Shown here one piece after another: positions 12,176-63,833 of a stretch of DNA of 64,000 bases. Within the stretch, counting starts at the first letter, position 1. Each line of letters begins with the position of its first letter. The DNA lies in assembly GCA_016214905.1 (NCBI GenBank), contig JACRMQ010000007.1, positions 396,408-460,407 on the forward strand, given 5' to 3'. Source of the stretch: Ignavibacteriales bacterium. GTDB lineage: Bacteria > Bacteroidota > Ignavibacteria > UBA10030 > SZUA-254. A model generated the notes under the pieces. That model was not told the origin of the DNA. It saw only the letters and a program-made list of their open reading frames with translations, and did not search any database. The position numbers and the translations under genes are program-made.

Positions 12176-13057
12176 TCAACCAAATACACCATTCCTCATC
12201 GCCGCGATATGATTCGGAGTTGTCCCACAGCATCCGCCGATAATTTTTACACCGACAGTCAGCAACTCCCGACTTTTTTCTGCCATGAACTCGGGTGTCT
12301 CATTGTAAATTAATTCACCGTTCTTCATTACCGGCAGTCCAGCGTTTGATTGAATTATTATCGGAAGATCGGTGTGCTTGCGGAATTCTTGGGCGATCTC
12401 AATCATCCTCTCAATACCATTACCGCAATTTGATCCGATTACATCAACACCGGCTTCCGTAAGTCCATCTACCGCTTGCTTAATCGAGACACCCATAATT
12501 GTATAAAACCCGCGTGGAGTTTTATCAAATGTCATTGTTGCACAAACAGGTATCTCTGAAGAAATTGATCTAACGGCTCTTACGGCAAGAATTGTTTCGT
12601 TTAAATCTGTCATGGTTTCAATGCAAATCAAATCTACACCGTTGCAGATCAATATTTTCAATTGTCGAAGATAAGACTCGAATATCGTAATCGATTTCGT
12701 GTCGCCAAATGGTTCTAAAAGTTTCCCAGATGGTCCGCATGATGCGGAAACATAAGCTTTGTCTTTAACCACTTTTCTTACTGCCTGCACGGCTTTTGAG
12801 TTTATTTCTTCTGTTTTATCGTCGAGGCCGTATGCTGAAAGTTTAAGTGGTGAACCACCGAATGTATTTGTCTGGATTATTTCAGCCCCCGCATCTAAAT
12901 ACAGACGAGCGATATCTTCTAAAACTTCAGGATGGTCAAGGTTCATCAACTCCGGACATTCACCCGGCTTTAATCCACGCTGGAAAAGCATTGTACCCAT
13001 CGCGCCATCGGCGATGATTACTTCTGGTCGCTTTAATCTTTCGACAAAAGATATCAT
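12176..13057 (-). CDS. Homocysteine S-methyltransferase domain protein (PF02574-like; MetH N-terminal-domain homolog), stand-alone
   Basis: 293 aa. Zn-ligand motifs NCG (IGSNCGNG) and GGCCGTTP near the C-terminus. Adjacent to the corrinoid protein gene. Confidence 0.75.
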   Translation of the reverse strand: MISFVERLKRPEVIIADGAMGTMLFQRGLKPGECPELMNLDHPEVLEDIARLYLDAGAEIIQTNTFGGSPLKLSAYGLDDKTEEINSKAVQAVRKVVKDKAYVSASCGPSGKLLEPFGDTKSITIFESYLRQLKILICNGVDLICIETMTDLNETILAVRAVRSISSEIPVCATMTFDKTPRGFYTIMGVSIKQAVDGLTEAGVDVIGSNCGNGIERMIEIAQEFRKHTDLPIIIQSNAGLPVMKNGELIYNETPEFMAEKSRELLTVGVKIIGGCCGTTPNHIAAMRNGVFG

Positions 13058-13172
13058 AATTATTTCTTAATGGTTCGGTGTTAGTTGTTGGTTATTTGTC
13101 ATTAGTTATTGGTCATTAGCTATTAGGCATTAACCATTGACTATTAACATTTGTTTTTCGGATATTATCTTT

Positions 13173-13811
13173 TCATGAATGTCCTAAAATGCGTTTGACG
13201 GATTCCACAGCGCTCATACCGTCGAAGCAATAAGCGTCCGCGCCAATCTCTTTTGCGTATTCAGAAGAAAGCGGCGCTCCGCCGACAATAAATTTTTTCT
13301 TTCCGTAAATCCGCCGTTCTCTTGCAAGATCAATCACCTTTTTCATAACCGGCATCGTTGTGGTGAGGAGTGCAGACATGCCGATTATTTCTGCATTTTC
13401 TTTTTCCGCTGTGTCGAGAAATTTTTCAGGAGAAACATCATTGCCTAAATCAATAACCTCGAAGCCAGCGCCTTTAAGCATAATGGCAACAAGATTTTTA
13501 CCGATGTCGTGCAAATCTCCTTGAACAGTTCCGATAACTACTTTGCCGATAGTTGGAATTCCTTCCTTAAGCATCAATGGTTTCAGCAAATCCATGCCGG
13601 TGTACATTGCTTTTGCCGCAAGTAGGACATCCGGCAGGAAAATCTCGTGCTGTTTGAATTTTTCTCCAACAACAGACATGCCGGCAATGAGTCCTTCATC
13701 GAGAATAGTTTTAGTGTCAATGTTTTCATTGATTGCCTGTTGAGTAAGCTCGGCAACATTCTTCGAGTTACCTTGTTGAAGTTGCTCAGAAAGTTTTTGT
13801 ATGATGTTCAT
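13173..13811 (-). CDS. Corrinoid (cobalamin-binding) protein, MtbC/MtmC/MttC-like
   Basis: 212 aa. B12-binding cap followed by a Rossmann-like B12-binding domain carrying the DxHxxG motif (GDLHDIGKN). Confidence 0.8.
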   Translation of the reverse strand: MNIIQKLSEQLQQGNSKNVAELTQQAINENIDTKTILDEGLIAGMSVVGEKFKQHEIFLPDVLLAAKAMYTGMDLLKPLMLKEGIPTIGKVVIGTVQGDLHDIGKNLVAIMLKGAGFEVIDLGNDVSPEKFLDTAEKENAEIIGMSALLTTTMPVMKKVIDLARERRIYGKKKFIVGGAPLSSEYAKEIGADAYCFDGMSAVESVKRILGHS

Positions 13812-13940
13812 GTTAATTCCAATATGTTCTCTGTTTTAAGTATTGAGTTTTCTAAATCTTGAATATTCCATCCTACATTATTCTTCATCCTATGCTATAC
13901 GCGGACATGCACGAGTTGATAGTAAATGTAATTCTTAATT

Positions 13941-48112: not shown

Positions 48113-48152
48113 TTGACAAACGGGAATTAATACTGTATATTATATACAGTAT
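48113..48152 (+). promoter_or_regulatory. Sigma70-type promoter (TTGACA-17 nt-TATATT) overlapped by a 23-bp perfect palindrome ATACTGTATAT-T-ATATACAGTAT. Candidate YtrA/GntR autoregulatory operator.
   Basis: TTGACA at 48113-48118, TATATT at 48136-48141, palindrome at 48130-48152, about 60 nt upstream of the GntR gene start. Confidence 0.6.
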
Positions 48153-48213
48153 ATACGATAATTACAATATAACATAAAAACATGCAAAATATAGTAAAAT
48201 ATCAAAGGTTTTC

Positions 48214-48591
48214 ATGAAGATTATAGTCTCAAATGCATCACAAGATCCGATTTATGAGCAGATTTGTAAACAGATAAAGGCACAAATCATATCCGGAGCT
48301 CTTGAAGAAGGAAGTGCTCTTCCGTCTATAAGAAAATTGGCACAAGAGTTACAAATAAGTGTCATCACTACAAAGCGAGCTTATGAGGAACTTGAAAAAG
48401 AAGGATTCATCGACAGCGTTGGGGGTAAAGGATGTTTTGTCGCGATGCAGAATAAGGAACTGCTTCGCGAGAAAAAAATTAAAAATGTAGAAGAGTTATT
48501 AAGTGATGCAGTTAAAGAAGCGAAGAAGTTTGGGGTATCATTTAAAGAAGTAAAAGAAATGTTGGAACTATTATATCATAACGAGGAATAA
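48214..48591 (+). CDS. GntR-family transcriptional regulator, YtrA subfamily
   Basis: 125 aa. N-terminal winged HTH (LPSIRKLAQELQISVITTKRAYEELEKEGFI) and a short C-terminal domain typical of YtrA-like regulators. Followed by an ABC ATPase. Confidence 0.75.
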   Translation: MKIIVSNASQDPIYEQICKQIKAQIISGALEEGSALPSIRKLAQELQISVITTKRAYEELEKEGFIDSVGGKGCFVAMQNKELLREKKIKNVEELLSDAVKEAKKFGVSFKEVKEMLELLYHNEE

Positions 48592-48595
48592 CATT

Positions 48596-49462
48596 ATGGA
48601 AAATGCTCTTGAGATAAATAATTTAAGAAAAGATTACGGAGACTTTCGTTTAAAAGATGTTACGTTCTCTCTGCCTGAAGGTTATATCATGGGATTAATC
48701 GGTCCGAACGGTGCGGGTAAAACAACAATCATAAAATTGATAATGAATCTTTTGATAAAGCAGGGTGGCAGCATTCGGGTATTTGGTAAAGATCATATCG
48801 AACATGAAGTAGATATTAAATCCCGGATAGGATTCGTATACGACAATCCGAATTATTATGAACACCTTAATCTTAAACAAGTAAAAAATATCATTCGTCC
48901 CTTCTATAAGAATTGGGATGATAAAGTTTTCATGAATCTTGTTGATAAATTCGAATTACCGTTGAAAAAGAATATCAGGAAATTCTCACGCGGTATGGTT
49001 ATGAAAGCAGCGATCGCAATTGCACTCTCACATCATGCCGACTTTATCATTATGGATGAACCGACCTCAGGATTAGATCCGATATTCAGAAGGGAACTGC
49101 TAGATTTACTTTATGACCTACTTCAGAGCGAGAAGAAATCGATTCTGTTTTCCACACATCTTACATCCGACTTAGAGCGTATAGCTGATTATATTACGTT
49201 CATACTGAATGGAAAAATCATTTTCTCTTCAAGCAAAAATGAAATAATGGAGACTTATGCGGTGATTAAAGGAGGGAACGATCTTCTAAACGAGGAAACA
49301 AAAAAATATTTTAAAGGGATTCGAAAAAATGAATTCGGTTTTGAAGCATTAACAAATAATGTTGAAGAGATAAAAGCGACTTTCGGTTCAGTTATTGTAA
49401 TTGAAAAAGCAACGCTGGAAGATATTATGTACTATAGTAACTTGAAAAATGGAAATTCTTAA
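48596..49462 (+). CDS. ABC transporter ATP-binding protein
   Basis: 288 aa. Walker A GPNGAGKTT and Walker B IIMDEPTSGLD. Degenerate signature motif FSRGMVMK. Confidence 0.8.
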   Translation: MENALEINNLRKDYGDFRLKDVTFSLPEGYIMGLIGPNGAGKTTIIKLIMNLLIKQGGSIRVFGKDHIEHEVDIKSRIGFVYDNPNYYEHLNLKQVKNIIRPFYKNWDDKVFMNLVDKFELPLKKNIRKFSRGMVMKAAIAIALSHHADFIIMDEPTSGLDPIFRRELLDLLYDLLQSEKKSILFSTHLTSDLERIADYITFILNGKIIFSSSKNEIMETYAVIKGGNDLLNEETKKYFKGIRKNEFGFEALTNNVEEIKATFGSVIVIEKATLEDIMYYSNLKNGNS

Positions 49463-50174
49463 TCTTATAAGAAAAGATTTTATTGCCGGAGCGATATTCC
49501 TTTTAGGTGTAGCCATCGTTATCCCTTTTATTGCATCTATTGCAATAGCTGCAATGATAGACGATTTTGGTGGAATCATTATTGGCATATTCACCTTTAT
49601 CGTTACCGCTTTATGTATCAGTGCTTCCTTTATTTTTATAGCGATTGACACTTCATTTGGAACAGAGATGACGTATGCAAGTTTACCCGTTAAACGATCT
49701 TCAATAATCGTTGCCCGATACATGTCATCAATTATTATTACCTTGTCAGGTTTCGGTTTGGTGATTTTAGCATGTCTATCATCGGTATATATTTTCAATC
49801 TATCCGATCCTGCTTTTCGTCTGCTTCTAAGTCCACGTGGTATAACGAGTATGATTTCATTTTTACTTTTTATTTTAACAATCATGCTCCCCTTCGTATT
49901 TAAATTTGGTCCGGGCAAAGGAGTAATAGCCGCACTGATATTGCAAATAAGTCTTGTGATAATCAGCCCGGTTTATAATTTTTTGATGAACGTATTGAAC
50001 GATATCTGGGATTTTGATATTACCTACATTTACAATTTACTTCATAACTTCCTAAACTGGATAATGACTTTGCCCGCTATTTATGCTTATCTCTTTGTAT
50101 TCGGCATCGTGTTGACTTTATATATCATTTCAATATCCTTATCAATTCGATTTTACAACAAGAGAGATTTATAA
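49449..50174 (+). CDS. Integral membrane protein, putative ABC-2-type permease component (paralog 1 of 4)
   Basis: 241 aa, ~6 TM helices. Conserved block SLPVKRSSIIVARYMSS is shared with the three downstream paralogs. Confidence 0.5.
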   Translation: MEILNLIRKDFIAGAIFLLGVAIVIPFIASIAIAAMIDDFGGIIIGIFTFIVTALCISASFIFIAIDTSFGTEMTYASLPVKRSSIIVARYMSSIIITLSGFGLVILACLSSVYIFNLSDPAFRLLLSPRGITSMISFLLFILTIMLPFVFKFGPGKGVIAALILQISLVIISPVYNFLMNVLNDIWDFDITYIYNLLHNFLNWIMTLPAIYAYLFVFGIVLTLYIISISLSIRFYNKRDL

Positions 50175-50179
50175 AAAAC

Positions 50180-50836
50180 ATGATGATATTGCAATTAATA
50201 TTAAAAGATATAAGAGCATATGGTAGCTTAATATTTCTTTGGATTCTTTTACCAATGGCGATTTTAAACTCTCTTTTCAGTTTAAGATTCTATCCTGTCG
50301 GCGGATTTATAATAGCAGGGTGTATGGTAATTGCAGTGGCTTGCTCCATTTTATCATTCTCAGAAAAGAAAAAGAATATTGAAATATTGACTCGTAGCCT
50401 ACCAGTAACAATTAGTGAAATTGTGATAGCTCGATTTTTAACTTCGGTCACCATATCGATCATTGGAATGATTTTCTATTACATAGGTACTTACATAGTC
50501 AACCAAATATATATTAATCCCAAGACTAATTTTGAAAATATCAACAGTCCAAAAGTTTTGTTCATTGCGACGTTTTACTTGTTACTTCATAATGCATTAT
50601 TCATTCCTGTAATGTTGAAATTCCGATTTCTCGGTTCGATATTGGCATTTGTTATAGCAATGTTCGCGACGATATTGATTACCGTCTCAATATTTAAACC
50701 TTACAGGTTGGATTTTAATCCATATTTTGGAACAAATGATTCAATTTTAATTTCAACTCTAACTTTATTTGCCATCTTGATACTGGTTATAGCATTTACG
50801 ATATCTCTGTTTGTCTATAAACGAAAAGAATTTTAG
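50180..50836 (+). CDS. Integral membrane protein, paralog 2 of 4
   Basis: 218 aa. N-terminus MMILQLILKDIRAY. Block SLPVTISEIVIARFLTS. Confidence 0.5.
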   Translation: MMILQLILKDIRAYGSLIFLWILLPMAILNSLFSLRFYPVGGFIIAGCMVIAVACSILSFSEKKKNIEILTRSLPVTISEIVIARFLTSVTISIIGMIFYYIGTYIVNQIYINPKTNFENINSPKVLFIATFYLLLHNALFIPVMLKFRFLGSILAFVIAMFATILITVSIFKPYRLDFNPYFGTNDSILISTLTLFAILILVIAFTISLFVYKRKEF

Positions 50837-50845
50837 AGGGAAACG

Positions 50846-51496
50846 ATGATTATCAAATTAATCCTGAAAGATTTAACAGCTTACAAAAAGAACATCATCC
50901 TGAATTTCTTAGCATTCATGATTCTTGGCAATATTTTTATCTTCCGTTATTATCCTTGGCATGTCTATATGATGTATGGATATTTGGCATTTGTTTTTAT
51001 TAGCACTTTTTTCTCGTTTATTGAAATAAATAAGAATGCTGAAGCTCTGACATGCAGTCTTCCTGTCAGCAGATCCGGAATTGTAATTGCAAGGTATCTC
51101 ACATCGGCTGTTTTGATGTTCGGTGGACTTGCACTGTGGTATCTAAACGGATTTGTTGCAGGAGCTGTATACACAGATGCGGCAACAGATTTTAATCGAG
51201 CTGCACATTTAAAAGTCCTCTTCATAGCTGTATTTTTCATAGTGCTACAAACCAGTATATTCCTGCCTGCTTTATTCAAATTCAGATTAATCGGAACAGT
51301 GCTAACATTTGTCGTAGCTCTTGTTGCGGCTGTAATAACTGTAGTTTTGATTTTCAGGCCCTACAGTCGCTCCTTCAATTCATATTTTGTAGAAGGAGAA
51401 TTGGTTGTTATCTCCATTTTAACATCAATAATGGTAGCAGCGCCGGCGCTTTCATTAGTAGTTTCATTAAGTCTTTTTAAAAGAAAAGATATTTGA
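50846..51496 (+). CDS. Integral membrane protein, paralog 3 of 4
   Basis: 216 aa. N-terminus MIIKLILKDLTAY. Block SLPVSRSGIVIARYLTS. Confidence 0.5.
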   Translation: MIIKLILKDLTAYKKNIILNFLAFMILGNIFIFRYYPWHVYMMYGYLAFVFISTFFSFIEINKNAEALTCSLPVSRSGIVIARYLTSAVLMFGGLALWYLNGFVAGAVYTDAATDFNRAAHLKVLFIAVFFIVLQTSIFLPALFKFRLIGTVLTFVVALVAAVITVVLIFRPYSRSFNSYFVEGELVVISILTSIMVAAPALSLVVSLSLFKRKDI

Positions 51497-51505
51497 GGCA
51501 ACGGT

Positions 51506-52159
51506 ATGATATTAAATTTGATTTTGAAGGATATTCGGGGTTACTGGAGATATATAATATTTTCTATCTTTCTGCCGGCAACTCTTTGGATCTCGATACT
51601 GATTATACCGCATTTCCCTGCTCGAGGTAATGTAATATTCTCCACTGCCGCTATAGTTGCAGCAATTTCCTATTTTGCCTTTTCGGAGAAAAAGCAGAGA
51701 CTCGAAACCCTCATTTGCAGTTTACCTATCTCGAGAAGGTCATTTGTCATAGCGCGGTACCTGTTTGCTCTTTGTGTCGCTATTTTTGGATTCGTAATAT
51801 TATACTGTGCATCATACGCAACTTATTTAATCTATTCAATACCGATTTCAGAATTTTTTATAACGTATAATCTGAAATCGTTTTTTATTGCACTTTATAT
51901 TATATCGGTTTCAGTCAGTTTCTTTTTCCCGTTTATTTATAAATTCAGAATTATGGGTATGATATTCACGCTTCCCATTGGATTTACTTTAGCAATGCAC
52001 TCGATGGTACTGATTTTTAATTTTACCAAACAATCGTACAAGCCATATTTTTTAGATACTGACTTTGTAAAAATTATTTTAATTACTCCTCTTATATTAA
52101 TTTTACCAATTATATCTGCAATGATATCAATAAAATTGTATGAACGGAAAAATATATAA
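51506..52159 (+). CDS. Integral membrane protein, paralog 4 of 4
   Basis: 217 aa. N-terminus MILNLILKDIRGY. Block SLPISRRSFVIARYLFA. Confidence 0.5.
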   Translation: MILNLILKDIRGYWRYIIFSIFLPATLWISILIIPHFPARGNVIFSTAAIVAAISYFAFSEKKQRLETLICSLPISRRSFVIARYLFALCVAIFGFVILYCASYATYLIYSIPISEFFITYNLKSFFIALYIISVSVSFFFPFIYKFRIMGMIFTLPIGFTLAMHSMVLIFNFTKQSYKPYFLDTDFVKIILITPLILILPIISAMISIKLYERKNI

Positions 52160-52176
52160 GAAAGGAATAAGGATAT

Positions 52177-52443
52177 ATGAGTAATATCTTTTTAACTGTT
52201 GCAATAATCTGTGTTCTCTGGGGAGTTGTTTCATCTATAGTAATTGTTTCCTTCCTATCGAATCACGGTGTGAAAATCAATTACTTCTTATTGAGATTAC
52301 TTTTACCAAAATATGTCGGACAGTATCGGAAAATTACACTCGAAGAAACTGGTAAGCCAGGCGGATGGTACTACTCGTTTGTAATATCTATGATTTCAGG
52401 GCTAACATTGGCGATTTTTGGGATATTACTGAGACAAACATGA
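52177..52443 (+). CDS. Small two-TM membrane protein
   Basis: 88 aa with two hydrophobic helices. Its stop overlaps the ATG of the next gene. Confidence 0.35.
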   Translation: MSNIFLTVAIICVLWGVVSSIVIVSFLSNHGVKINYFLLRLLLPKYVGQYRKITLEETGKPGGWYYSFVISMISGLTLAIFGILLRQT

Positions 52444-53591
52444 AGATATTCAATAAAATAAATATCAGATGGCTTGTAGCATTTCTAATTGTTTTTGCCG
52501 CATGTTCCCATAACAAACATCCCTTAGACGTCTGTATACGGGAATCGTTAACCGACCGGCTCGAGCAGTACGATGTGAAGGGTGCTTCAGTGGCTGTCAT
52601 ACTTCCGGATGGAACCATACACCGTGTGTGTGCAGGCATATCGCATGATACAGTGGCGGTGAAGCCAGCAATGCTCTTCGCCATTGGAAGTATTACCAAG
52701 AACATGGTCGCTGCGCTCATTCTTCAATTAGCTGAGGAAGGGTTGCTTTCGCTCGATGATCCACTGCATAAATGGCTTCCTCCATATCCTCACGTTGACA
52801 GTACAATCACCATCCGACAGATGCTAAACCACACCAGTGGTATCTTCATGTTCTGGGAAAACCAAAAACTGTGGGATGATCTCATCAAGTACCGCGATAG
52901 CGTATTTACTCCAGAAGTTGTCCTCACTTATTTGAAAGAACCTCACTTCGCTCCTGGCAAAGGGTTCAGATACTCGAACACAAACTATCTTTTACTCGCG
53001 ATGATTGCTACTCGAGCAACTCACTCGACACTCTCTGCGGAATTTCGAAGACGCTTCTGGCTACCACTCGGGCTTAAAAATACGTTCCTCTCTATAGAAG
53101 AGATAATACCGCAAGAAAAACTCGCGCATGTGTGGGGAGACAATTTCGAGAATAATGGTTCCAATAGAGACATTACATTTCTTCCAAGAACTTCGCACGA
53201 AAGTATTACTTACGGATCGTCGGGTGTGTTCACTACGGCGGAAGAACTTGCGCTTTGGTGTAAATCTCTTTTTGAAAATAGAATCCTAAAACCAAACTCC
53301 TTGAATCAAATGCTCAATTTCAATACCGAAGCATCGACTTCATGGTGTGATGGTTACGGTTTAGGTGTACAGGTATTCAAGAAGAAGATTACAGATGGAA
53401 AACTGGCATACGGGCACGGTGGAGGAAACATTGGCACCTCTACCTACATGGCATACCTGCCTGATTATGATGTGAGTGTTGTTGTCATGATCAACTTTTT
53501 CCACCCCCAATGCCCTAACAGGATGCTTGAAGATATTATTGAGATTGTAACGGATTACATTAATCTAAATGCAATGGGGAAAACTTTATGA
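52440..53591 (+). CDS. Serine hydrolase of the beta-lactamase/transpeptidase fold (class C beta-lactamase-like lipoprotein)
   Basis: SxxK motif FAIGSITKNM. The likely start is the ATG at 52440 (MKIFNKINIRWLVAFLIVFAACSH lipoprotein signal). The tool's ORF begins upstream at 52365. Confidence 0.7.
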   Translation: MKIFNKINIRWLVAFLIVFAACSHNKHPLDVCIRESLTDRLEQYDVKGASVAVILPDGTIHRVCAGISHDTVAVKPAMLFAIGSITKNMVAALILQLAEEGLLSLDDPLHKWLPPYPHVDSTITIRQMLNHTSGIFMFWENQKLWDDLIKYRDSVFTPEVVLTYLKEPHFAPGKGFRYSNTNYLLLAMIATRATHSTLSAEFRRRFWLPLGLKNTFLSIEEIIPQEKLAHVWGDNFENNGSNRDITFLPRTSHESITYGSSGVFTTAEELALWCKSLFENRILKPNSLNQMLNFNTEASTSWCDGYGLGVQVFKKKITDGKLAYGHGGGNIGTSTYMAYLPDYDVSVVVMINFFHPQCPNRMLEDIIEIVTDYINLNAMGKTL

Positions 53592-53645
53592 AGAGATGCC
53601 TGTGTTTTTTGTAAATTAAAAAGTGATAAATGGTTTAGATATTGT

Positions 53646-55130
53646 ATGAAAATCTTGAGATCTAAAATATTGTATATTCCTACAATATGTATTTTATTAC
53701 TTCTCATACCCAATTGCAGGCCCCATCGAGTTGGTGAAGACAGATTCTCAAGTGTCCGGTCGAAAATTAAAGACTTCATGGAAGACGAGAACGTCTCATC
53801 TGTTTCTGTCGCAGTAGCTCAACATGGAAAAATCATCTGGGAGGAATCGTTCGGCATGGCAAACCGTGAAAAACAAATCAAAGCGACACCAAATACGATG
53901 TACGAGATAGCATCAATTGCAAAAGTGTACACAACAACGGCGCTAATGATTCTTCAAGAGCGTGGTCTTCTTGATATCGATGCACCGGTTGAATCATATC
54001 TTGGTGATGTAAAGATAAAATCATTCGGGGTAGATGCATCCGGCGTTACACTCAGGCGAATCATTCAACATACATCAGGGCTACCCATGTTATGGGGCGA
54101 ACCGGCTGGTACAGACACAAATTTCCCAATCATGCAGAAGGAAATTTTCGATAGGTTTGCGATTCTTGCTTTTAAACCTGGAGAAAGAGAACTTTATTCG
54201 AACGTCGGTATTGGTCTGCTAACTTATGTCATCGAGAACGTATCGGGTAAATCGTACAGCGACTTTTTGAAGGAAAACATTTTTCTTCCCCTTGGATTGA
54301 CATACACCATTCGACTTACTACTCCACCATCAACAGATGAATATGCACAACAATACGATCATAGCGGAAAGCCGTGGACATACAACGAAGGATTTTATGC
54401 AAGTGCGGATGACCTTCTCCGTTTTGGAATGTTCCATCTCAAAAATCATCTACCTGATCAAAGGAAAATTCTTAGCGATTCGACAATCGATGTGATGCAA
54501 ACATCTATTGATCCTTACAGCGATTTCCGCCTCCCTTGGTGGGTCTGGGAATATGAAGGATATAAGACGTTGGTATTCACAGGTGCATCTGGAACAATTT
54601 TAGCACTCCTGCCTGAAGCAGACCTTGCAATTGTTGTCCTTGCAAATAAGATGCAGGCGAATACACCGAAGGTTTGCAAATGGATTGCTGATGAAATTCT
54701 TGATGACTTCGATGAGTCTAAACGACTCCCCACAAAAATTCGAACACATAAAAAAATTCAACCGCCAACTTTATCTCGGGTTGCACTTGCAGGTATCTGG
54801 CAAGGTTCTATCGTCACTCATGAGTGGGAACTACAAGTTGAGTTATCGCTTGGTAATACACCAATGATGCGTAGTCAGAATGTTGATGGATCGTGGGGAA
54901 GATGGATGGAGTCGATGTTTACACTCCGGGGCAATTATTCGGCAGGAATTTTCTCCGCATATTTCCCAATTCATATTCCTGTACATGATACCAAAGAACA
55001 TAATCATTGGACTTGGATATATGTTGGTTTACACAGAGACACACTTCGCGGATATGCAGTTGCCCATGCTGCGGACGGACCTCATTATGGGCTTCCTTAT
55101 TATATAAATCTGGAGAGGAAAAAGGATTAG
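53646..55130 (+). CDS. Serine hydrolase of the beta-lactamase/transpeptidase fold with C-terminal extension
   Basis: 494 aa with a signal peptide. SxxK motif YEIASIAKVYT. About 130 extra C-terminal residues. Confidence 0.7.
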   Translation: MKILRSKILYIPTICILLLLIPNCRPHRVGEDRFSSVRSKIKDFMEDENVSSVSVAVAQHGKIIWEESFGMANREKQIKATPNTMYEIASIAKVYTTTALMILQERGLLDIDAPVESYLGDVKIKSFGVDASGVTLRRIIQHTSGLPMLWGEPAGTDTNFPIMQKEIFDRFAILAFKPGERELYSNVGIGLLTYVIENVSGKSYSDFLKENIFLPLGLTYTIRLTTPPSTDEYAQQYDHSGKPWTYNEGFYASADDLLRFGMFHLKNHLPDQRKILSDSTIDVMQTSIDPYSDFRLPWWVWEYEGYKTLVFTGASGTILALLPEADLAIVVLANKMQANTPKVCKWIADEILDDFDESKRLPTKIRTHKKIQPPTLSRVALAGIWQGSIVTHEWELQVELSLGNTPMMRSQNVDGSWGRWMESMFTLRGNYSAGIFSAYFPIHIPVHDTKEHNHWTWIYVGLHRDTLRGYAVAHAADGPHYGLPYYINLERKKD

Positions 55131-55250: not shown

Positions 55251-56189
55251 TTGAAATTTGTTCGTAAATATGCATATTCAGAAAGATTTATGAAAGGCAT
55301 GGTATTCAATATTCAGCGATATTCTATAAACGATGGGCCAGGTATTCGTACAACCGTTTTCCTAAAAGGATGTCCGCTTCATTGTTTGTGGTGTCATAAT
55401 CCTGAATCAATTTCCACCGATCAAGAAATTGTTCTGCGGGAAGATAGATGTATCCGCTGCGGAAGCTGTATTGAATGCTGCAGCCAACATGCAATCCGGA
55501 ATGAAAGCAACCTTATCGTTACATCGTGTGAGAAATGTATAAGATGTGGAAACTGCGTTGAGGTATGCTATGCCGGCGGGCGGGAGATTGCGGGTAAAGA
55601 GATGTCTGTGGAAGATGTAGTGAAAGAAATTGAAAAAGATATCATCTTTTACAACAGGTCGACAGGTGGAGTTACATTTTCAGGTGGCGAGCCGTTTCTT
55701 CAACATTTGTTTCTAAAGTCTCTTCTCGAAAATTGTAAATCAAAAAACATTCATACGGCAGTAGATACAGCTGGATTTGTCGTGGAAAATATTTTAAACG
55801 GGTTTGAAAATTTGATCGATCTATTTCTATATGATATCAAAACCGTTGACGATTTCAAGCATCGCATGTTCACCGGCGGATCGAATAAAATAATTCTTGA
55901 TAATCTAAGGTTTTTGATAAATCAAGGGAATAATATAATTATTAGAGTACCCGTAATACCGGGATTTAACAATAATCTTCATGATATGAAGTTAGTAGGT
56001 GAGTTTGTTGATTCACTTAAAAATATTTCCGAAATTCATTTATTGCCATATCATAAATCAGGAACGGAAAAATATAAACGATTAGGGATAAAATTTGAAA
56101 TGAATGATGAACCACCTGATTCAACAGCAATGGAGCTTATTGCCGCTGAGATGAAAAAATATGTTCAAACAGTCAAGATAGGCGGATAA
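55251..56189 (+). CDS. Glycyl-radical-enzyme activating enzyme (radical SAM, with two auxiliary ferredoxin-type [4Fe-4S] motifs)
   Basis: Radical SAM motif GCPLHCLWCHNPE plus CIRCGSCIECC and CEKCIRCGNCVEVC. The probable start is MKGMVF at 55290. Confidence 0.8.
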   Translation: MKFVRKYAYSERFMKGMVFNIQRYSINDGPGIRTTVFLKGCPLHCLWCHNPESISTDQEIVLREDRCIRCGSCIECCSQHAIRNESNLIVTSCEKCIRCGNCVEVCYAGGREIAGKEMSVEDVVKEIEKDIIFYNRSTGGVTFSGGEPFLQHLFLKSLLENCKSKNIHTAVDTAGFVVENILNGFENLIDLFLYDIKTVDDFKHRMFTGGSNKIILDNLRFLINQGNNIIIRVPVIPGFNNNLHDMKLVGEFVDSLKNISEIHLLPYHKSGTEKYKRLGIKFEMNDEPPDSTAMELIAAEMKKYVQTVKIGG

Positions 56190-56190
56190 T

Positions 56191-58548
56191 ATGAACGACC
56201 GTGTAAAAAAATTACGGGAACAAAGCATCAACTCTGTGCCCACAATTTCATCAGAGCGGGCAAAACTTGTAACCAATTTCTATAAAAATTCAGAATCACT
56301 CCCCATACCTATTCAGAGAGCGCTGGTTTTCAAAACAATAATGGAAAACAAAACTATTTGCATTAATCATGGCGAGCTGATTGTTGGTGAACGCGGACCA
56401 GCCCCCAAAGCGACTTACACTTATCTGGAAATCTGTTGTCACATGTTGAGTGACTTAGAAACACTTCACAACCGCGAAAAGGTTTGGTTCAAAGTTGATG
56501 AAGAAACCCGGCGATTATACCGCGATGAATTTATTCCTTTCTGGAAAGAGAAAACCATTCGTGAAAAAATATTTAACGCTGTATCGGATGAATGGAAAGA
56601 TGCTTACTCTGCTGGTATCTTCACGGAGTTCATGGAGCAAAGGGCGCCGGGACATACGGTTCTCGATGATAAGATTTATCGAAAGGGGATGCTCGACCTT
56701 AAAAACGATATTGAACAAAGCCTGAAGTCGATTGATTTCAAAAATGACCCGGAAGCAAAATCTAAAGAAAATGAGTTGCAAGCAATGAACATCTGCGCGG
56801 ATGCAATCATCTCGTTTGCAAACCGTCATGCAGATAAAGTACATGAACTCGCATTTGTAGAAATTAATCCGGTTAGAAAATCGGAGTTGGAAGCAATTGA
56901 AAAAATTTGTCGTCGGGTCCCAGCTAACGCTCCGCAAAATTTCTGGGAAGCGCTTCAATATTACTGGTTCATTCACCTCGGAGTGGTTACCGAATTAAAT
57001 CCCTGGGATGCGTTCAATCCGGGACATCTCGATCGTCATCTCTATCCGTTTTATAAAAAAGGATTGGAGAATGAAACTCTTACAAAAGAAAAAGCTAAGG
57101 AATTACTCCAATGCTTCTGGGTAAAATTCAACAACCAGCCGGCACCGCCGAAGGTCGGTGTAACTGCAGCAGAAAGTTCAACTTACACCGACTTTGCAAA
57201 TATTAATTCAGGCGGGATAATGTCCGATGGCAGTGATGGTGTAAATGAATTAACATATCTTATTCTAGATGTTATCGACGAGATGAAATTAGTTCAGCCT
57301 AGTTCGAACATTCAGCTTAGTGAGAAAAATTCCGATGAGTTCCTGAAACATGCTTTGAAGATAATCAAAAATGGCCGCGGCCAGCCATCCATTTTTAATG
57401 CTGATACCGTCGTCGATGAAATGCTTCGGCAGGGAAAATCTATCGAAGATGCACGAAATGGAGGAACAAGTGGTTGCGTGGAAACAGGTGCTTTCGGAAA
57501 AGAAAGTTATATACTTACCGGATACTTCAACATTCCGAAAGTTTTCGAGATAACTTTAAACAACGGTGTTGATCCACGAACCGGAAGGAAAATCGGTCTT
57601 GAGACCGGAAATCCTGAACTGTTTAAATCTTTTGATGAATTAATGTTTGCTTTCGAAAAGCAGATGAAGCATTTCATCGATATTAAAATGAAAGGGAATC
57701 ATTCGATCGAAAGATTATACGCCGAAGAATTACCGGTACCATTCTTATCAATCCTGATTGATGATTGTATTTTAAAAGGAAAAGATTATAATAAAGGCGG
57801 AACGCGATACAACACGAATTATATTCAAGGTGTCGGCATAGGTACGATAACCGATTGTCTTGCATCGATCAAATATAATGTATTTGAGAAAAAAATCATT
57901 TCAATGACAGATATGTTGAAAATGCTTGCCGTAAACTTTGAAAGATTCGAACGAGAACAAATGCTTCTATTAAACAAAACTCCAAAGTACGGTAACGATG
58001 ATGATTATGCTGATGATTTGATGAAGCAGGTGTTCGAGATGTATTTCAAACTTGTTGACGGTAGACCAAATACTAAAGGTGGTCTGTACAGGATTAATTT
58101 ACTTCCGACGACATGCCACATCTATTTCGGTTCAGTCACAGGTGCAACACCAGATGGACGAAAAGCTTGGACTCCGCTCTCGGAAGGAATATCTCCCGTG
58201 CAAGGTGCGGATAGAAAAGGTCCGACAGCTGTGTTGAAGTCAGCGGGGAAGATGGATCATGTACGTACAGGTGGAACATTGTTGAACCAAAAGTTTACTC
58301 CTCAAATATTAGAAAGCGAAAAAGGACTTGATAGTCTTGCACATCTTGTACGCGGATATTTCATAATGGGCGGACATCATATTCAGTTTAATGTTGTCAC
58401 CGCACAAACCTTGCGCGAAGCACAGGCGCATCCCGAGCAACACCGTGATTTAATTGTGCGCGTTGCAGGCTATAGTGATTACTTCTGCGATTTGAGCAAG
58501 ACGCTGCAAGACGAGATTATTGCGAGGACGGAACATCAAGGATTCTAA
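56191..58548 (+). CDS. Glycyl radical enzyme (PFL family), eliminase/dehydratase-type Cys loop, substrate unknown
   Basis: 785 aa. C-terminal glycyl radical motif RVAGYSDYF. Single-Cys catalytic loop GTSGCVETG (Cys-x-Glu, as in glycerol dehydratase, CutC and HypD). No PFL-type Cys-Cys pair. Confidence 0.75.
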   Translation: MNDRVKKLREQSINSVPTISSERAKLVTNFYKNSESLPIPIQRALVFKTIMENKTICINHGELIVGERGPAPKATYTYLEICCHMLSDLETLHNREKVWFKVDEETRRLYRDEFIPFWKEKTIREKIFNAVSDEWKDAYSAGIFTEFMEQRAPGHTVLDDKIYRKGMLDLKNDIEQSLKSIDFKNDPEAKSKENELQAMNICADAIISFANRHADKVHELAFVEINPVRKSELEAIEKICRRVPANAPQNFWEALQYYWFIHLGVVTELNPWDAFNPGHLDRHLYPFYKKGLENETLTKEKAKELLQCFWVKFNNQPAPPKVGVTAAESSTYTDFANINSGGIMSDGSDGVNELTYLILDVIDEMKLVQPSSNIQLSEKNSDEFLKHALKIIKNGRGQPSIFNADTVVDEMLRQGKSIEDARNGGTSGCVETGAFGKESYILTGYFNIPKVFEITLNNGVDPRTGRKIGLETGNPELFKSFDELMFAFEKQMKHFIDIKMKGNHSIERLYAEELPVPFLSILIDDCILKGKDYNKGGTRYNTNYIQGVGIGTITDCLASIKYNVFEKKIISMTDMLKMLAVNFERFEREQMLLLNKTPKYGNDDDYADDLMKQVFEMYFKLVDGRPNTKGGLYRINLLPTTCHIYFGSVTGATPDGRKAWTPLSEGISPVQGADRKGPTAVLKSAGKMDHVRTGGTLLNQKFTPQILESEKGLDSLAHLVRGYFIMGGHHIQFNVVTAQTLREAQAHPEQHRDLIVRVAGYSDYFCDLSKTLQDEIIARTEHQGF

Positions 58549-58666: not shown

Positions 58667-61306
58667 TTATTTTATAATTTCAGCGGTCGTTTTCTTAACG
58701 AACTGTATGAGTCCGCGTTTATCAAGTGATACTTCAACCGTATCGGCATCGCTTATTGAGCCGGCGAGTATTTCTTCTGATAATTTGTTGACTATATATT
58801 TTTGAATCACACGCTTCAAAGGTCTGGCGCCAAGCGTAGGATCGTAACCGAGCTTGATGAGCCAATCTTTTGCTTCTTCGGTAAATTCGATCCGGATATT
58901 TTTTTGCTCAATCGTTTTTTGTAAACGTTTTATCTGGATATCTATAATTCGCCTGAGATCGTTTCGGTTTAAAAGTTTGAAGAGGATTATTTCATCGATA
59001 CGGTTCAAAAATTCCGGCCTGATCGATTGACGAAGCATATCGAATAATGTAACCCGCAACTCGCTATAAATCTTTTCAAGTTCACCGTTCGAAATAATAT
59101 CACCACTCAATCTTTCCTGAATCAACTGCGATCCAAGATTTGAGGTCATGATGATTATTGTGTTCTTAAAATTGACGGTTCGACCTTTATTGTCGGTTAA
59201 ACGTCCTTCATCCAAAACCTGTAATAATAAATTAAAAACTTCCGGATGTGCTTTTTCTATTTCATCGAGCAATACAACAGAATATGGTTTTCGCCGAACT
59301 GTTTCTGTAAGCTGACCGCCTTCTTCGTAACCAACGTAACCAGGAGGTGCGCCTATCAGCCGGGAAACGGAGAATTTCTCCATATACTCACTCATATCAA
59401 TTCGTATCAACGCGCTTTCATCGTTGAATAGAAACTCTGCAAGTGCGCGTGCAAGCTCAGTTTTACCGACACCTGTTGAGCCGAGAAATATGAATGAGCC
59501 AATCGGCTTTTTTTCGTCTTGCAAACCAGCACGGCTGCGGCGTATGGCGTCGGCAACGGCATGCACGGCTTCTTCCTGACCGACAAGCCGTTCGTGAAGT
59601 CGCTCTTCGAGGTGAAGAAGTTTCGTCCGCTCGCTTTCTAACATTCGGTTTAGCGGGATGCCTGTCCAGCGAGAAACAATTTCGGCAATATCTTCGGCAT
59701 CGACCTCTTCCTTCAACATTTTTTTATCTTGTTGAATTTCTGCAAGCTTGATGCTTGCCTTTTGCAATTCTTTTTCAAGAGAAGCTATTATTCCATACCG
59801 CAGTTCAGCAACACGCGCGAGATTTCCCGACCGTTCATTTTGTTCAGCTTCATTTTTTGCGTTCTCGATATCACCTTTCATTTTTCTTATAGATTGAATA
59901 AGCTCTTTTTCGTTTTGCCAATGCGCGCGCAGTCCTGAGCGCTCCTGATTCAACTCGGCTAATTCTTTATTTATATCTTTCAATCGCCCTTTCGTGGCTT
60001 CATCGGTTTCACGTTTTACCGCCTCGCGTTCAATTTCAAGTTGTTTAATGCGACGCTCAATTTCATCGAGTTCTTCGGGTAGAGAATCTATTTCAATTCT
60101 GAGTTTCGAAGCGGCTTCATCCACTAAATCGATTGCTTTATCGGGTAAAAAACGATCGCTGATATAACGGTGGCTTAATTGTGTCGCTGCTACAATGGCG
60201 CCATCAGTGATGCGAACACCGTGATGGATTTCGTATCGTTCTTTAAGTCCGCGTAATATTGATATAGTGTCTTCAACTGTCGGCTCATCTATGAGAACCG
60301 GTTGAAACCTGCGCTCAAGCGCGGGATCTTTTTCTATATGCTTTCTGTACTCATCTATCGTTGTTGCGCCGATTGCCCGAAGTTCGCCTTTTGCGAGAGC
60401 CGGCTTTAACATGTTCGCCGCGTCAACCGCACCTTGTGCTGCGCCCGCTCCCACGAGTGTGTGAAGTTCATCTATAAATAAAATAATCTCTCCCTGAGAT
60501 TCGGTTACTTCCTTGAGAACTGCTTTGAGACGCTCTTCAAATTGTCCGCGAAAACTTGTACCCGCCACAAGTGTGCCCATATCGAGAGCTATAATTCGTT
60601 TTGTTTTTAGATTTTCGGGAACATCGCCTTGTATGATCCTATGAGCGATTCCCTCGGCTATGGCGGTCTTTCCAACACCCGGCTCACCGATAAGAACGGG
60701 ATTATTTTTTGTGCGGCGTGAAAGAACCTGAAGCACGCGTCGAATTTCTTCATCCCGCCCGATTACCGGATCGAGTTTTCCTTTGCGTGCAAGCTCGTTA
60801 AGATCTCTGCCAAATCTTTGTAGCGATTGATATTTCTCTTCAGGCGTTTGATCGGTTACTCGTTGTGTACCGCGGATATCTTTGAGCGCTTTATAAATTT
60901 GATCTTTCGATACACCCTGACTGTTAAGAAGTTGCGCTGCGGATGATTTACCTGTAACGATACCAAGAAGCAGATGTTCAGTGCTGACATATTCATCTTT
61001 GAGTGATTGTGCTTCTTTCAAAGAGTTATCGAAAATTTGTGCAAGCGTTTGACTTATGAATTGATTTCCTGTGCCTGCGCTAGTGACTTTCGGAAGTTTT
61101 TCAATCGCTTCATTAATTTTTATTTTGATGTAATTAAGATTAGCTCCGATTTTTTGAAGTATAGGTGCAATTAAACCTTCGCTGTCCTGAACCAGCGCGG
61201 CAAGCACATGTTCCGGCTCGATCGATTGATTACCGCAACTCGCGGCAATTTCCTGCGCGTTCTGTACTGCCTCCTGTGATTTAATTGTGAATTTATGAAA
61301 GTTCAT
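58667..61306 (-). CDS. clpB: ClpB (Hsp100) disaggregase, AAA+ ATPase with two nucleotide-binding domains
   Basis: 879 aa. Clp N-domain repeats, two Walker A motifs (GEPGVGKTA and GSTGVGKTE) and the middle coiled-coil domain. Confidence 0.9.
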
Positions 61307-61601: not shown

Positions 61602-63551
61602 TTATTTATCCTTCTCGTCAACAACTTCGAACGATGCATCCTCAACCGCTTTATCGTTCTTTTTTGTGCCGTTGCCTGCGGCATTTGGTTCACCGGTTGG
61701 CGGAGGAGGCGGTGCGCCGGCTTGCTGTTGTTTTTGCCCTCCGGCGGTGGCTTTTTGATACATCGCAGTGGAAGCTTCGTTCCAAATATTATTCAAAGAT
61801 TCCATCTTTGCTTTGATATCCGCTATGTTATTGTTTTTAATAGCTGCATCGAGAGCATCTGCCGCTGATTCGACTTTCGATTTTATGTCGGATGGAATTT
61901 TATCGCCGAATTCCTTCAACTGTTTACGTGTTTGGAATACGAGATTGTCGGCTTGATTTTTTGTATCCACTTCTTCTCTTCGTTTTTTATCTTCTGCAGA
62001 ATGTGCCTGCGCATCGGTTTTCATTTTATCAACTTCTTCTTTGCTTAAACCGCTTGAAGATGTTATGCGTATGCTTTGTTCTTTGTTTGTAGCTTTATCT
62101 TTTGCGGTTACATGAAGCATACCGTTCGCATCGATATCGAATGTAACTTCGATCTGAGGAACCCCTCGTGGAGCCGGCGGAATTCCGTCTAAATGAAATC
62201 TGCCGAGCGTCCTGTTGTCTATTGCCATAGGTCGTTCACCCTGCAATATGTGAATTTCAACAGATGGTTGACTGTCGGATGCGGTTGAAAATATTTCACT
62301 TTTCTTTGTAGGTATCGTGGTGTTCGCCTGGATCATTTGCGTGGTAACCCCACCCAGCGTTTCGATACCGAGTGTTAATGGTGTAACATCGAGTAATAAA
62401 ACGTCTGTAACGTCACCGGATAAAACACCTCCTTGTATTGCTGCTCCAACCGCAACAACTTCATCGGGGTTTACACCTTTATGTCCCTCTTTACCGAATA
62501 TTTCTTTCACAAGCTGCTGAACTCGCGGTACTCGTGTCATACCACCGACAAGAATAATCTCCTCAATCTGATTTGGATTGAGTGAGGCATCTCGCATAGC
62601 TTTTTCGACTGGGGGAATACACCGTTGAATCAAATCCTCAACAAGTTGTTCAAACTTAGCGCGTGTGATGGTAAGATTTAAATGTTTTGGACCTTCGGCG
62701 GTAGCGGTAATAAACGGCAGATTGACTTCAGTCTGCATAAGCTGGGAGAGTTCCATCTTTGCTTTTTCTGCTGCCTCGCGTAAGCGCTGAAGCGCCATCG
62801 GATCTTTACGTAAATCGATGCCTTCCTGTTTTTTAAATTCATCGGCAATGTAATCAACTAATCGATGATCGAAATTATCTCCGCCAAGATGCGTATCGCC
62901 ATTTGTCGATTTGACTTCGAAAACACCTTCACCGAGTTCAAGTATCGAGATATCGAATGTGCCACCACCTAGATCGAACACGGCAACCTTCATGTCTTTA
63001 TGTTTTTTATCTAGACCGTATGCTAGTGCGGCTGCGGTAGGTTCGTTGATAATTCTGCGAACATTCAAACCGGCAATTTCGCCTGCTTCTTTTGTAGCTT
63101 GTCTTTGAGCATCATTAAAGTATGCCGGAACAGTAATAACCGCGTCTGTAACTTTGGTGCCGAGATAATCCTCAGCGGTTTGTTTCATTTTTTGTAAAAT
63201 CATCGCGCTGATTTCCGGAGGTGAATAAATCCGGTCGTCTATCTTTACACGCGCCGTATTATTATCTCCCTGAACGACTTTGTATGGGATGAGTTTCATC
63301 TCTTCTGTCACTTCATTTTGAAATCTTCCCATGAAGCGCTTAATCGAGAATACTGTGTTCTGTGAATTTGTAACTGCTTGTCGTTTGGCTGCCTGACCAA
63401 CAAGTCGTTCACCGCTTTTTGGAAAACCGACGACCGATGGCGTAGTTCTGGCGCCCTCAGCATTTGCAATCACTGTTGGATCTTTACCTTCCATTACAGC
63501 AACCACTGAGTTTGTTGTTCCTAAATCGATACCAATAATTTTACCCGACAT
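61602..63551 (-). CDS. dnaK: Molecular chaperone DnaK (Hsp70)
   Basis: [14 protein letters not shown] at the N-terminus and DLGGGTFD. The likely start is the ATG at 63551, which has an AAAGGAG RBS. The tool's ORF extends to a TTG at 63569. Confidence 0.9.
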
Positions 63552-63833
63552 TTTAAAACTCCTTTTCAAAATAAGACATTTTTCTCCTCGGAGTCGATCT
63601 CCTAAGAAATAAATTTTTAATACTATACTACTAACTTACAATAGATATGCCACAGGAAATAAAAATAATATGTTGTTTTTCTTCAATAATCAGCATTTAA
63701 TAATCACCTTATTTGAGAGAAACATGACACAACTGCCATCATGGCATGGCTGATTAGACTATTGGCAGGAGCTGGAAAAAATGGCAGAAAAACATCCTTG
63801 ACTTTTACGCGCAATTTTCATAATCTGAACGCG

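Follow-up and report, generated by a model that had tools for sequence, protein, structure and literature searches.

Which role does a locus play in an uncultured member of the Ignavibacteriales when it places a single ATP-binding cassette (ABC) ATPase before four divergent membrane partners, and is it a new system at all? The question is raised by contig JACRMQ010000007.1 (assembly GCA_016214905.1), of which a stretch of 64,000 nucleotides (nt), here called the window, was analysed. Nine genes, all on the plus strand, lie within its positions 48113-55130 and encode a GntR-type regulator, the ABC ATPase, four permeases, a membrane protein of 88 amino acids (aa) and two serine hydrolases. We consider it probable that this operon specifies an inducible exporter of the ABC-2 (type V) class, similar to Pmt and Cln, for amphipathic, most likely peptidic, compounds. 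The module is a variant of a widespread known design, not a new system. Every feature listed in an initial annotation of this DNA was found in place, and its interpretation had to be corrected on several points.

The locus resembles the pmtR-pmtABCD operon of Staphylococcus aureus, in which a YtrA-type GntR gene also stands first and represses its own promoter. The best curated models for the first two products were those of Pmt components, with full-length matches: NCBIfam PmtR (NF047563) aligned with the regulator at 149 bits (1-125/125), and PmtA (NF047565) with the ATPase at 318 bits (1-278/282). Judged by these scores, the two proteins are close relatives of the Pmt components and not their equivalogs. 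Assignment of the regulator to the YtrA type, already proposed in the initial annotation, agrees with its length of 125 aa and with its closest solved relatives, the short GntR proteins 4HAM (134 aa), 3NEU (125 aa), 4R1H (128 aa) and 3BY6 (126 aa), which align to about residue 117. A GntR winged helix-turn-helix (wHTH) domain occupies residues 14-76 (PF00392, E 3.4e-16), the protein is as short as members of the subfamily are (a C-terminal part of about 50 aa and a total of about 120-130 aa), ABC genes adjoin it and a palindromic core lies at its own promoter; by these sequence features it belongs to the YtrA subfamily of GntR. Across relatives in the clade it is 70-95% identical. The ytrABCDEF operon of Bacillus subtilis, from which the subfamily takes its name, is alike by description, a short GntR repressor gene preceding ABC transporter genes. 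Cell-wall antibiotics induce it, and it differs from the window in having two ATPases and a permease set that includes an FtsX/MacB-like subunit.

The signature motif of the ATPase had been called degenerate. Across 22 relatives no change was found at F130, S131, G133, M134, M136 and K137; Walker A, Walker B with E155, and the H-loop histidine H188 are likewise invariant. The FSRGM part shares the form [Y/F]-S-x-G-M with YSMGM, which replaces LSGGQ in PmtC and PmtA and whose serine and glycine bind nucleotide in the PmtCD structure (PMC7527219). The motif is thus of a functional form, and the invariance of the Walker motifs, the glutamate, the histidine and the signature serine and glycine rules out a degenerate, possibly inactive ATPase. 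The predicted structure of the ATPase ends in an ACT-like C-terminal domain and a terminal helix (block-mean predicted local distance difference test, pLDDT, of 90-94 for residues 221-280). PmtC is described with a C-terminal ACT 'basket' domain (PMC7527219), and in the model the C-terminal layout of the window ATPase is that of this domain. Full-length fold matches were TM_1403, NosF and PmtC (6XJI_C). A scan of a genome collection with the ATPase alignment and the pattern DEPTSGLDP returned, among the matches listed, mostly Firmicutes or distant ABC ATPases and no close relatives; the pattern is too generic, and the close relatives were found through exact-protein look-ups.

How the operon is switched could be approached by comparing the DNA 5' of the orthologous regulator gene in the window and in 13 other independent loci. 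The ATPases of these loci are 65-91% identical to that of the window, and the loci come from Ignavibacteriales-like, KSB1, Cloacimonetes and unassigned metagenome contigs. A 16-mer core, exact in nine of the 14 loci and with one to two mismatches in the other five, was the top-scoring match in each locus of 10-20 kb and was always located 5' of the GntR gene, about 60-110 nt before its start codon; an additional, weaker match with two mismatches lies within a permease gene in L175. Within the window the core occurs at one place (0.09 expected by chance). It contains a 7+1+7 palindrome, TATATAC-A-GTATATA, plus the self-complementary GTATATAC. The core also coincides with the promoter. A sigma70 promoter before the regulator had been claimed, and indeed TTGACA-17 nt-TATATT is the best sigma70-like site between positions 47600 and 56300, matching at 11 of 12 positions. 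The locus L090 has an identical -10 hexamer at identical spacing, and a TTGAC(A/T) -35 box is kept 5' of the core in L087, L088, L090, L122, L127, L083 and L172-L175.

The initial annotation had further described a perfect 23-bp palindrome in which the -10 box is embedded. It was confirmed, and it is the sole perfect palindrome in the window whose arms measure 11 nt or more and whose spacer does not exceed 3 nt; first-order Markov simulations gave an expectation of 0.13 per window, with one or more such palindromes in 7 of 60 runs. The left arm is variable, with two mismatches in L090, whose ATPase is 91% identical, and it is absent from L172 and L173, so that the perfect form was seen in the window only among the loci compared. 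The conserved element is therefore the 16-mer core and not the full palindrome. Firmicutes relatives, with ATPases 40-58% identical, have long palindromes made from the same word, such as GGATATACTGTATATATAACGATATATACAGTATATCC in L007.

The core is part of a longer pattern of phased 9-bp direct repeats, since its 16 bp make up most of the first two units. The clade consensus of the unit is RRTAWWWAC; among 50 units from ten loci aligned in register, T3 was kept in 82%, A4 in 80%, A8 in 88% and C9 in 82%. Two to three further in-phase units follow 3' of the core in all loci, which points to a likely operator of about 36-45 bp, and the repeats probably represent this extended operator. PmtR of S. 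aureus protects 36 bp across the transcription start (PMC5080381), a footprint of the size of four 9-bp units, which may link the two. Tandem Repeats Finder reported a period of 14 nt and not of 9 nt for the operator; the 9-nt phasing is seen only across loci in register. From 2 nt before the core, a total of four to five phased repeats was counted in the window, L083, L086-L090, L122 and L127. A phase of 9 bp is shorter than a helical turn, which is puzzling for reading by a dimeric wHTH protein. A search of the leader against Rfam found no riboswitch or other RNA element. The autorepression that had been thought likely is strongly supported by the comparison: conservation of the core at the promoter upstream of the regulator in 14 loci makes it well supported, from sequence, that the regulator represses its own promoter via this core.

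Such a switch might also serve for sensing. The clnRAB locus of Clostridioides difficile, likened to the window by architecture, likewise comprises a YtrA-type regulator, an ABC ATPase and an ABC-2 permease in a single autoregulated operon, and is unlike it in having a single permease and a pleiotropic regulator. As suggested by ClnRAB or by B. subtilis YtrBCDEF, the module could be a sensing device which signals to the regulator or alters the envelope and confers little direct resistance, and the permease paralogs would then broaden the signal range. We regard this as unlikely. ClnR, a YtrA-type protein encoded in an ATPase/permease operon, binds LL-37 and controls many genes (PMC6117091), and the window has the same GntR-ATPase-ABC-2 permease architecture; however, the confinement of the operator 16-mer to one place in 64 kb means that no wider regulon is visible locally, and the closest curated models are components of the Pmt exporter, not of a sensor.

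The four consecutive paralogs that follow the ATPase, whose family the initial annotation had left as a question, are all ABC-2 permeases of family PF13346. They scored 66.6, 64.4, 60.7 and 67.4 bits (permeases 1-4) over the complete model (1-205/205 each), with a gathering threshold of 25 bits. Pairwise identity ranges from 19 to 38%, the highest value being that of permeases 2 and 3. The shared N-terminal and SLPV blocks that had been noticed are real and read M-x-I-L-x-L-I-L-K-D and SLPVxRxxIVIARYL; across 64 family members K8, D9, S71, L72, P73, R76, R83 and Y84 are invariant or nearly so. In an AlphaFold2 (AF2) model of permease 3 (pLDDT 88), which has six transmembrane (TM) helices, these positions map to an N-terminal helix (residues 2-12) and to a helix in the TM2/3 loop (residues 65-70). 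The connecting helix (CnH) and the coupling helix (CpH) of PmtD contact the ATPase (PMC7527219), and all four paralogs would thus seem to keep the ATPase-docking elements while the remainder diverges. The full-model Pfam scores and the six-TM fold with connecting and TM2/3 coupling helices place the proteins among the ABC2_membrane_5 (type V) permeases, the class to which the six-TM permeases of Pmt also belong.

The permeases change much faster than their partners. Regulator and ATPase are 65-95% identical in relatives where the permeases drop to 25-55%, a pattern in keeping with a constant motor and switch and with rapid evolution of the parts that face the substrate; the divergence next to a conserved ATPase is as compatible with sensing as with export. 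A neighbour-joining tree placed the long permease 1, the best conserved one (28-78% identical in relatives), in a single orthologous clade present in every clade locus, and the short permeases in older groups, in which each of permeases 2-4 pairs with its L090 counterpart. The L090 counterparts of the window paralogs are 66-87% identical (permease 4, 87%). The low mutual identity together with the orthologous counterparts shows that the duplications are old. Recent tandem amplification is ruled out by the identities and the tree, and the 'four-fold amplification' of the initial annotation is better described as a set of old paralogs in a clade where two to six permeases per ATPase are the rule.

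This number varies among the 14 loci compared. A single ATPase is accompanied by two permeases in L089, by three in L085, L087, L088, L172, L173 and L175, by four in the window, L090, L086, L122, L127 and L083/84 (two of the copies in the last being fragmentary), and by six consecutive PF13346 genes in L174 (L174:9045-13047; ATPase 80% identical), the largest array seen. In more distant relatives, mostly from Firmicutes, the number is one or two. The layout of several permeases with a single ATPase recurs over several phyla, and we did not find it described in the literature. The arrangement had been called non-standard: regulator, ATPase and permeases form a core that is in fact widespread, and what is unusual is the hydrolase pair, which occurs in the window and in two of the 13 related loci.

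A precedent for several ABC-2 permease genes sharing one ATPase is LanFEG (NisFEG, EpiFEG, MutFEG). In LanFEG one ATPase gene serves two different permease genes, whose products form a mixed membrane pair, and the genes sit in lantibiotic clusters under two-component systems. NisFEG is described as heterotetrameric in a preprint (bioRxiv 10.1101/2025.10.09.681468). The window proteins are unlike LanFEG in score, the ATPase reaching 128 of 309.75 bits with TIGR03740 and permease 2 showing a weak match of 20.9 bits, with a cut-off of 145.2, to the MutE/EpiE lantibiotic-immunity model (TIGR03732). As Pmt and LanFEG are immunity exporters and permease 2 weakly resembles MutE/EpiE, the operon might give a producer self-immunity against its own secreted amphipathic peptide or bacteriocin. 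This is very improbable: the operon adjoins neither a gene for a peptide precursor or a modification enzyme nor a biosynthetic cluster, and is flanked in the window by a fucosidase and a glycyl-radical enzyme pair, and the flanks differ in every related locus.

The fold of the permeases raises another possibility. It was taken from the AF2 model after a sequence-profile search had found no solved chain, and Foldseek matched the model of permease 3 to CcmB, NosY and PmtD (TM-score 0.53-0.59, probability 1.0), and also to the Rv1217c-1218c efflux pump. CcmB, NosY and Rv1217c-1218c are type V systems for substrates other than peptides, and the best sequence matches of the ATPase include lipid transporters of the ABCA type. 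The locus could accordingly serve to export or flip a lipid, glycolipid or lipid-linked precursor of the cell's own envelope, as several type V ABC transporters do, with paralogs for different lipid species and S12 enzymes that act on the cell wall. We find this distinctly unlikely, for the characterised systems with this type of regulator considered here, Pmt, Cln and B. subtilis Ytr, answer to peptides or cell-wall antibiotics rather than serving housekeeping lipid export, and a repressed, inducible and fast-evolving permease set of variable size fits defence better than a core envelope function.

Several points weigh against a peptide exporter of the Pmt/Cln kind as well. The PmtR and PmtA scores stay below the equivalog cut-offs (200 and 350 bits, respectively). 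The Pmt system consists of two ATPases and two permeases, assembled as A2B2 and C2D2, whereas the window has one ATPase and four permeases. The permeases did not match the PmtB model (E 0.15-0.85), a profile of the four paralogs found no match up to E 10 among all solved chains, PmtD included, and Foldseek gave the permease model E-values that are marginal (about 0.04). For PmtAB, the half of Pmt that is nearer in sequence, no substrate is known (PMC9974410), and ClnRAB is mainly a signalling system, not a resistance pump (PMC6117091). No substrate, inducer or peptide gene could be identified within the window, and 11 of the 13 independent related loci lack the hydrolase pair. Unlike Pmt, the locus belongs to a diderm host, the Ignavibacteriales bacterium, with no known phenol-soluble modulin (PSM) peptides and no PSM-like gene seen, and has the 88-aa membrane protein and two S12 hydrolases after its permeases. 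The missed cut-offs, the different gene content and the unmatched PmtB together indicate that the locus is not a member of Pmt, and its sequence is that of a module which probably works like Pmt and Cln. An envelope-stress or detoxification role, as the initial annotation had suggested, is plausible by analogy with Pmt and ClnRAB.

On the reading as an inducible exporter of amphipathic compounds, we envisage that a dimer of the regulator, or several dimers, would bind the core TATATACAGTATATAC and the phased 9-bp repeats. Core and repeats span the -10 box and extend into the early transcript, so that binding would shut the promoter of the regulator and with it the whole operon. Repression by PmtR is released by PSM peptides (PMC5080381), and by analogy with PmtR and ClnR an amphipathic peptide or similar membrane-active compound might act as the inducer that releases the repressor. 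One ATPase species would form the motor dimer, with the four PF13346 paralogs as membrane halves that either replace one another or mix. PmtCD pulls amphipathic peptides out of the membrane and confers protection from them (PMC9974410); likewise, the pump might rid the membrane of hydrophobic or amphipathic compounds, peptides being the most likely. Different permease pairs could widen the substrate range, and the lipoprotein hydrolases may cleave expelled or incoming peptides containing D-amino acids outside the cytoplasmic membrane. A more far-reaching version, about which we are rather doubtful, is that in Ignavibacteriales, KSB1 and Cloacimonetes one Pmt-type ATPase dimer is the shared motor for two to six interchangeable permeases, which form homo- and heterodimers of differing substrate ranges, and that in some lineages secreted D-peptidase-like or transglutaminase-like hydrolases destroy the exported compounds, the whole being a modular and fast-evolving defence of uncultured diderm bacteria against peptide antibiotics.

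Whether the hydrolases belong to the module at all has to be asked separately. The two beta-lactamase-fold proteins of the initial annotation are present, as is the two-TM micro-protein. Both hydrolases have a PF00144 domain with SxxK and Y-x-N motifs, and by sequence they belong to the PF00144/S12 peptidase group. Hydrolase 1 (189 bits) has SITK at residue 84, YSN at 178 and HGG at 326, and its closest solved relatives are alkaline D-peptidase (4Y7P) and R61 DD-peptidase (1CEF). Hydrolase 2 (201 bits, residues 37-341) has SIAK at 90 and YSN at 184 but no clear third catalytic motif, an N-terminal signal or lipoprotein-like sequence and a C-terminal extension of about 150 aa; its closest solved relatives are Pab87 (2QMI), Flp (4GDN) and LACTB. 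The description as 'class-C-like' enzymes could not be upheld, since the class C beta-lactamase model NF033085 gave 64 and 111 bits for hydrolases 1 and 2, respectively, far under the cut-off of 415 bits and over the N-terminal half only, and D-peptidase-type proteins are closer. The likeness to the S12 D-peptidases (alkaline D-peptidase, R61, Pab87) lies in the PF00144 fold and the SxxK and YxN motifs, and identity is low. BogQ, a D-stereospecific resistance peptidase, is another S12 member, and gramicidin A is hydrolysed by D-stereospecific peptidase activity (PMC9541196); the window hydrolases share with BogQ membership of the S12 group.

For hydrolase 1 the start at 52440 (MKIFNK...; N-terminus MKIFNKINIRWLVAFLIVFAAC) is most likely, and is preferred to the longest-ORF (open reading frame) start at 52365, because of the lipoprotein-like signal ending in FAAC, the overlap of its ATG with the stop codon of the 88-aa gene as ATGA, and public gene calls.

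There is a little less than an even chance that the two genes of beta-lactamase fold, possibly together with the 88-aa gene, are neighbours unrelated to the cassette, with ordinary work in cell-wall peptide or peptidoglycan recycling. This would be compatible with the pump and would contradict solely the idea of a single module expressed in the initial annotation. Only the window, L090 and L083/84 have PF00144 genes after the cassette; these are absent in L085-L089, L122, L127 and L172-L175, where other genes take the place: Transglut_core (L087, L088, L172, L173), S9/S15/S46 (L087), M1 (L089), Trypsin_2 (L173), and HEAT-repeat or unrelated genes. The cassette of L083/84 is itself broken by inserted genes, and homologs of the 88-aa protein lie mostly away from ABC genes. 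On the other hand, the intergenic gaps before the 88-aa gene and hydrolase 1 are 17 and -4 nt, with the ATGA overlap and no terminator-like site; L090 retains the stretch from permease 4 to hydrolase 1 despite having a different gene directly 5' of its cassette; and the downstream genes in relatives are repeatedly hydrolases or peptidases, which hints at a looser functional theme. From its layout the operon is tight, with gaps from the regulator to hydrolase 2 of 4, -14, 5, 9, 9, 17, -4 and 54 nt, in which no terminator-like sites were found, and co-transcription of the hydrolases with the pump is likely in the Ignavibacteriales lineage of the window. Hydrolases and 88-aa protein are lineage-specific additions, and their genes are probably co-transcribed with those of the pump. 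A functional tie of the hydrolases to the pump is possible but weak, as the pair is missing from most related loci.

The 88-aa protein itself matched no family in Pfam or NCBIfam. It has two TM segments and a conserved cytoplasmic loop, VKINxFLLR..PKYVxQYKKIT.EETG, and in seven loci (window, L090, L086, L122, L127, L172 and L173) its gene comes after that of the last permease. Among 80 metagenome homologs (L092-L171), mostly on sediment or freshwater contigs, permeases lie upstream in four to five, and nearly all of the long loci are without ABC genes; sampled neighbours are mixed (metallo-beta-lactamase/TPR, OYE, radical SAM, TonB_C, Ser/Thr kinase). These mostly ABC-free contexts rule out an obligate part of the module, and the protein is a loosely linked companion rather than a core part. 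The 80 homologs constitute a family without a Pfam model.

A better knowledge of this module matters, since the combination of a YtrA/PmtR-type regulator with an ABC-2 exporter is known almost only from Firmicutes pathogens, in which such modules serve for toxin export or for sensing and resisting peptides of the host. Motor and switch of the same kind now appear in uncultured Ignavibacteriales and neighbouring phyla, with an operator word that is nearly unchanged. Multiplication of the membrane subunit to two to six divergent paralogs per ATPase raises the assembly question of which pairs form and which substrates they take, and the comparison supplies an operator consensus and a map of docking motifs for experiments. 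The practical weight is modest, the overall design being familiar and the hydrolase link lineage-specific. The features of the locus are compiled in Table 1.

Table 1. Promoter, operator and coding features of the operon, in window coordinates.
Feature	Position	Strand	Family or remark
-35 box TTGACA	48113-48118	+	sigma70-like site
23-bp palindrome ATACTGTATAT-T-ATATACAGTAT, 11+1+11, perfect	48130-48152		overlaps -10 box
-10 box TATATT, 17-nt spacer from -35	48136-48141	+	sigma70-like site
Four phased 9-bp direct repeats ATTATATAC, AGTATATAC, GATAATTAC, AATATAAC(A)	48139-48174	+	
Operator core 16-mer TATATACAGTATATAC	48141-48156	.	conserved in 14 loci
GntR regulator, 125 aa	48214-48591	+	PF00392
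ABC ATPase, 288 aa, FSRGMVMK signature	48596-49462	+	PF00005
Permease 1, long type, 241 aa	49449-50174	+	PF13346 E 2.9e-18
Permease 2, 218 aa	50180-50836	+	PF13346 E 1.3e-17
Permease 3, 216 aa	50846-51496	+	PF13346 E 1.9e-16
Permease 4, 217 aa	51506-52159	+	PF13346 E 1.6e-18
Two-TM protein, 88 aa	52177-52443	+	no Pfam/NCBIfam family
S12-type serine hydrolase 1, 383 aa, predicted lipoprotein	52440-53591	+	PF00144 E 1.6e-55
S12-type serine hydrolase 2, 494 aa	53646-55130	+	PF00144 E 3.3e-59

The genes for the ATPase and permease 1 share 14 nt. Logan metagenome gene calls for the window locus and for L090/L091 miss permease 1 and show an antisense ORF of 165-198 aa instead, which in the window runs from 49388 to 49918 on the minus strand and opposes the permease gene. 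The plus-strand ORF of permease 1 is annotated in the NCBI record and is supported by its PF13346 match. An anti-phage defence system was also considered and rejected, PADLOC having returned generic helix-turn-helix and P-loop matches only.

Among the related loci, genes for large transglutaminase-core proteins, often with TPR, occupy the slot of the beta-lactamase-fold genes of the window in L172 (9459-11879), L173 (8579-10996), L087 (5356-8697) and L088 (12974-15019); in L083 a Transglut_core gene lies upstream. The cassette of L083 is decaying: a PDDEXK_3 gene stands between permeases 1 and 2, permeases 3 and 4 are fragmentary or split (L083:11828-12217; 12861-13938), and a DUF4143 ATPase gene on the opposite strand (L083:15714-16961) separates the two PF00144 genes. 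In Aminicenantes, L008:9513-14101 carries two tandem cassettes, GntR-ATPase-two permeases followed by GntR-ATPase-one permease.

Beyond hydrolase 2, and separated from it by 120-159 nt, the plus strand encodes a glycyl-radical-enzyme activase and then a pyruvate formate-lyase (PFL)-like glycyl radical enzyme (746 bits) at 55290-58548. Further downstream, ClpB and DnaK are encoded on the minus strand (58667-61306 and 61602-63569, respectively). In L090 these two genes lie upstream of the cassette, unlike in the window, so that the neighbourhood has been rearranged between close relatives.

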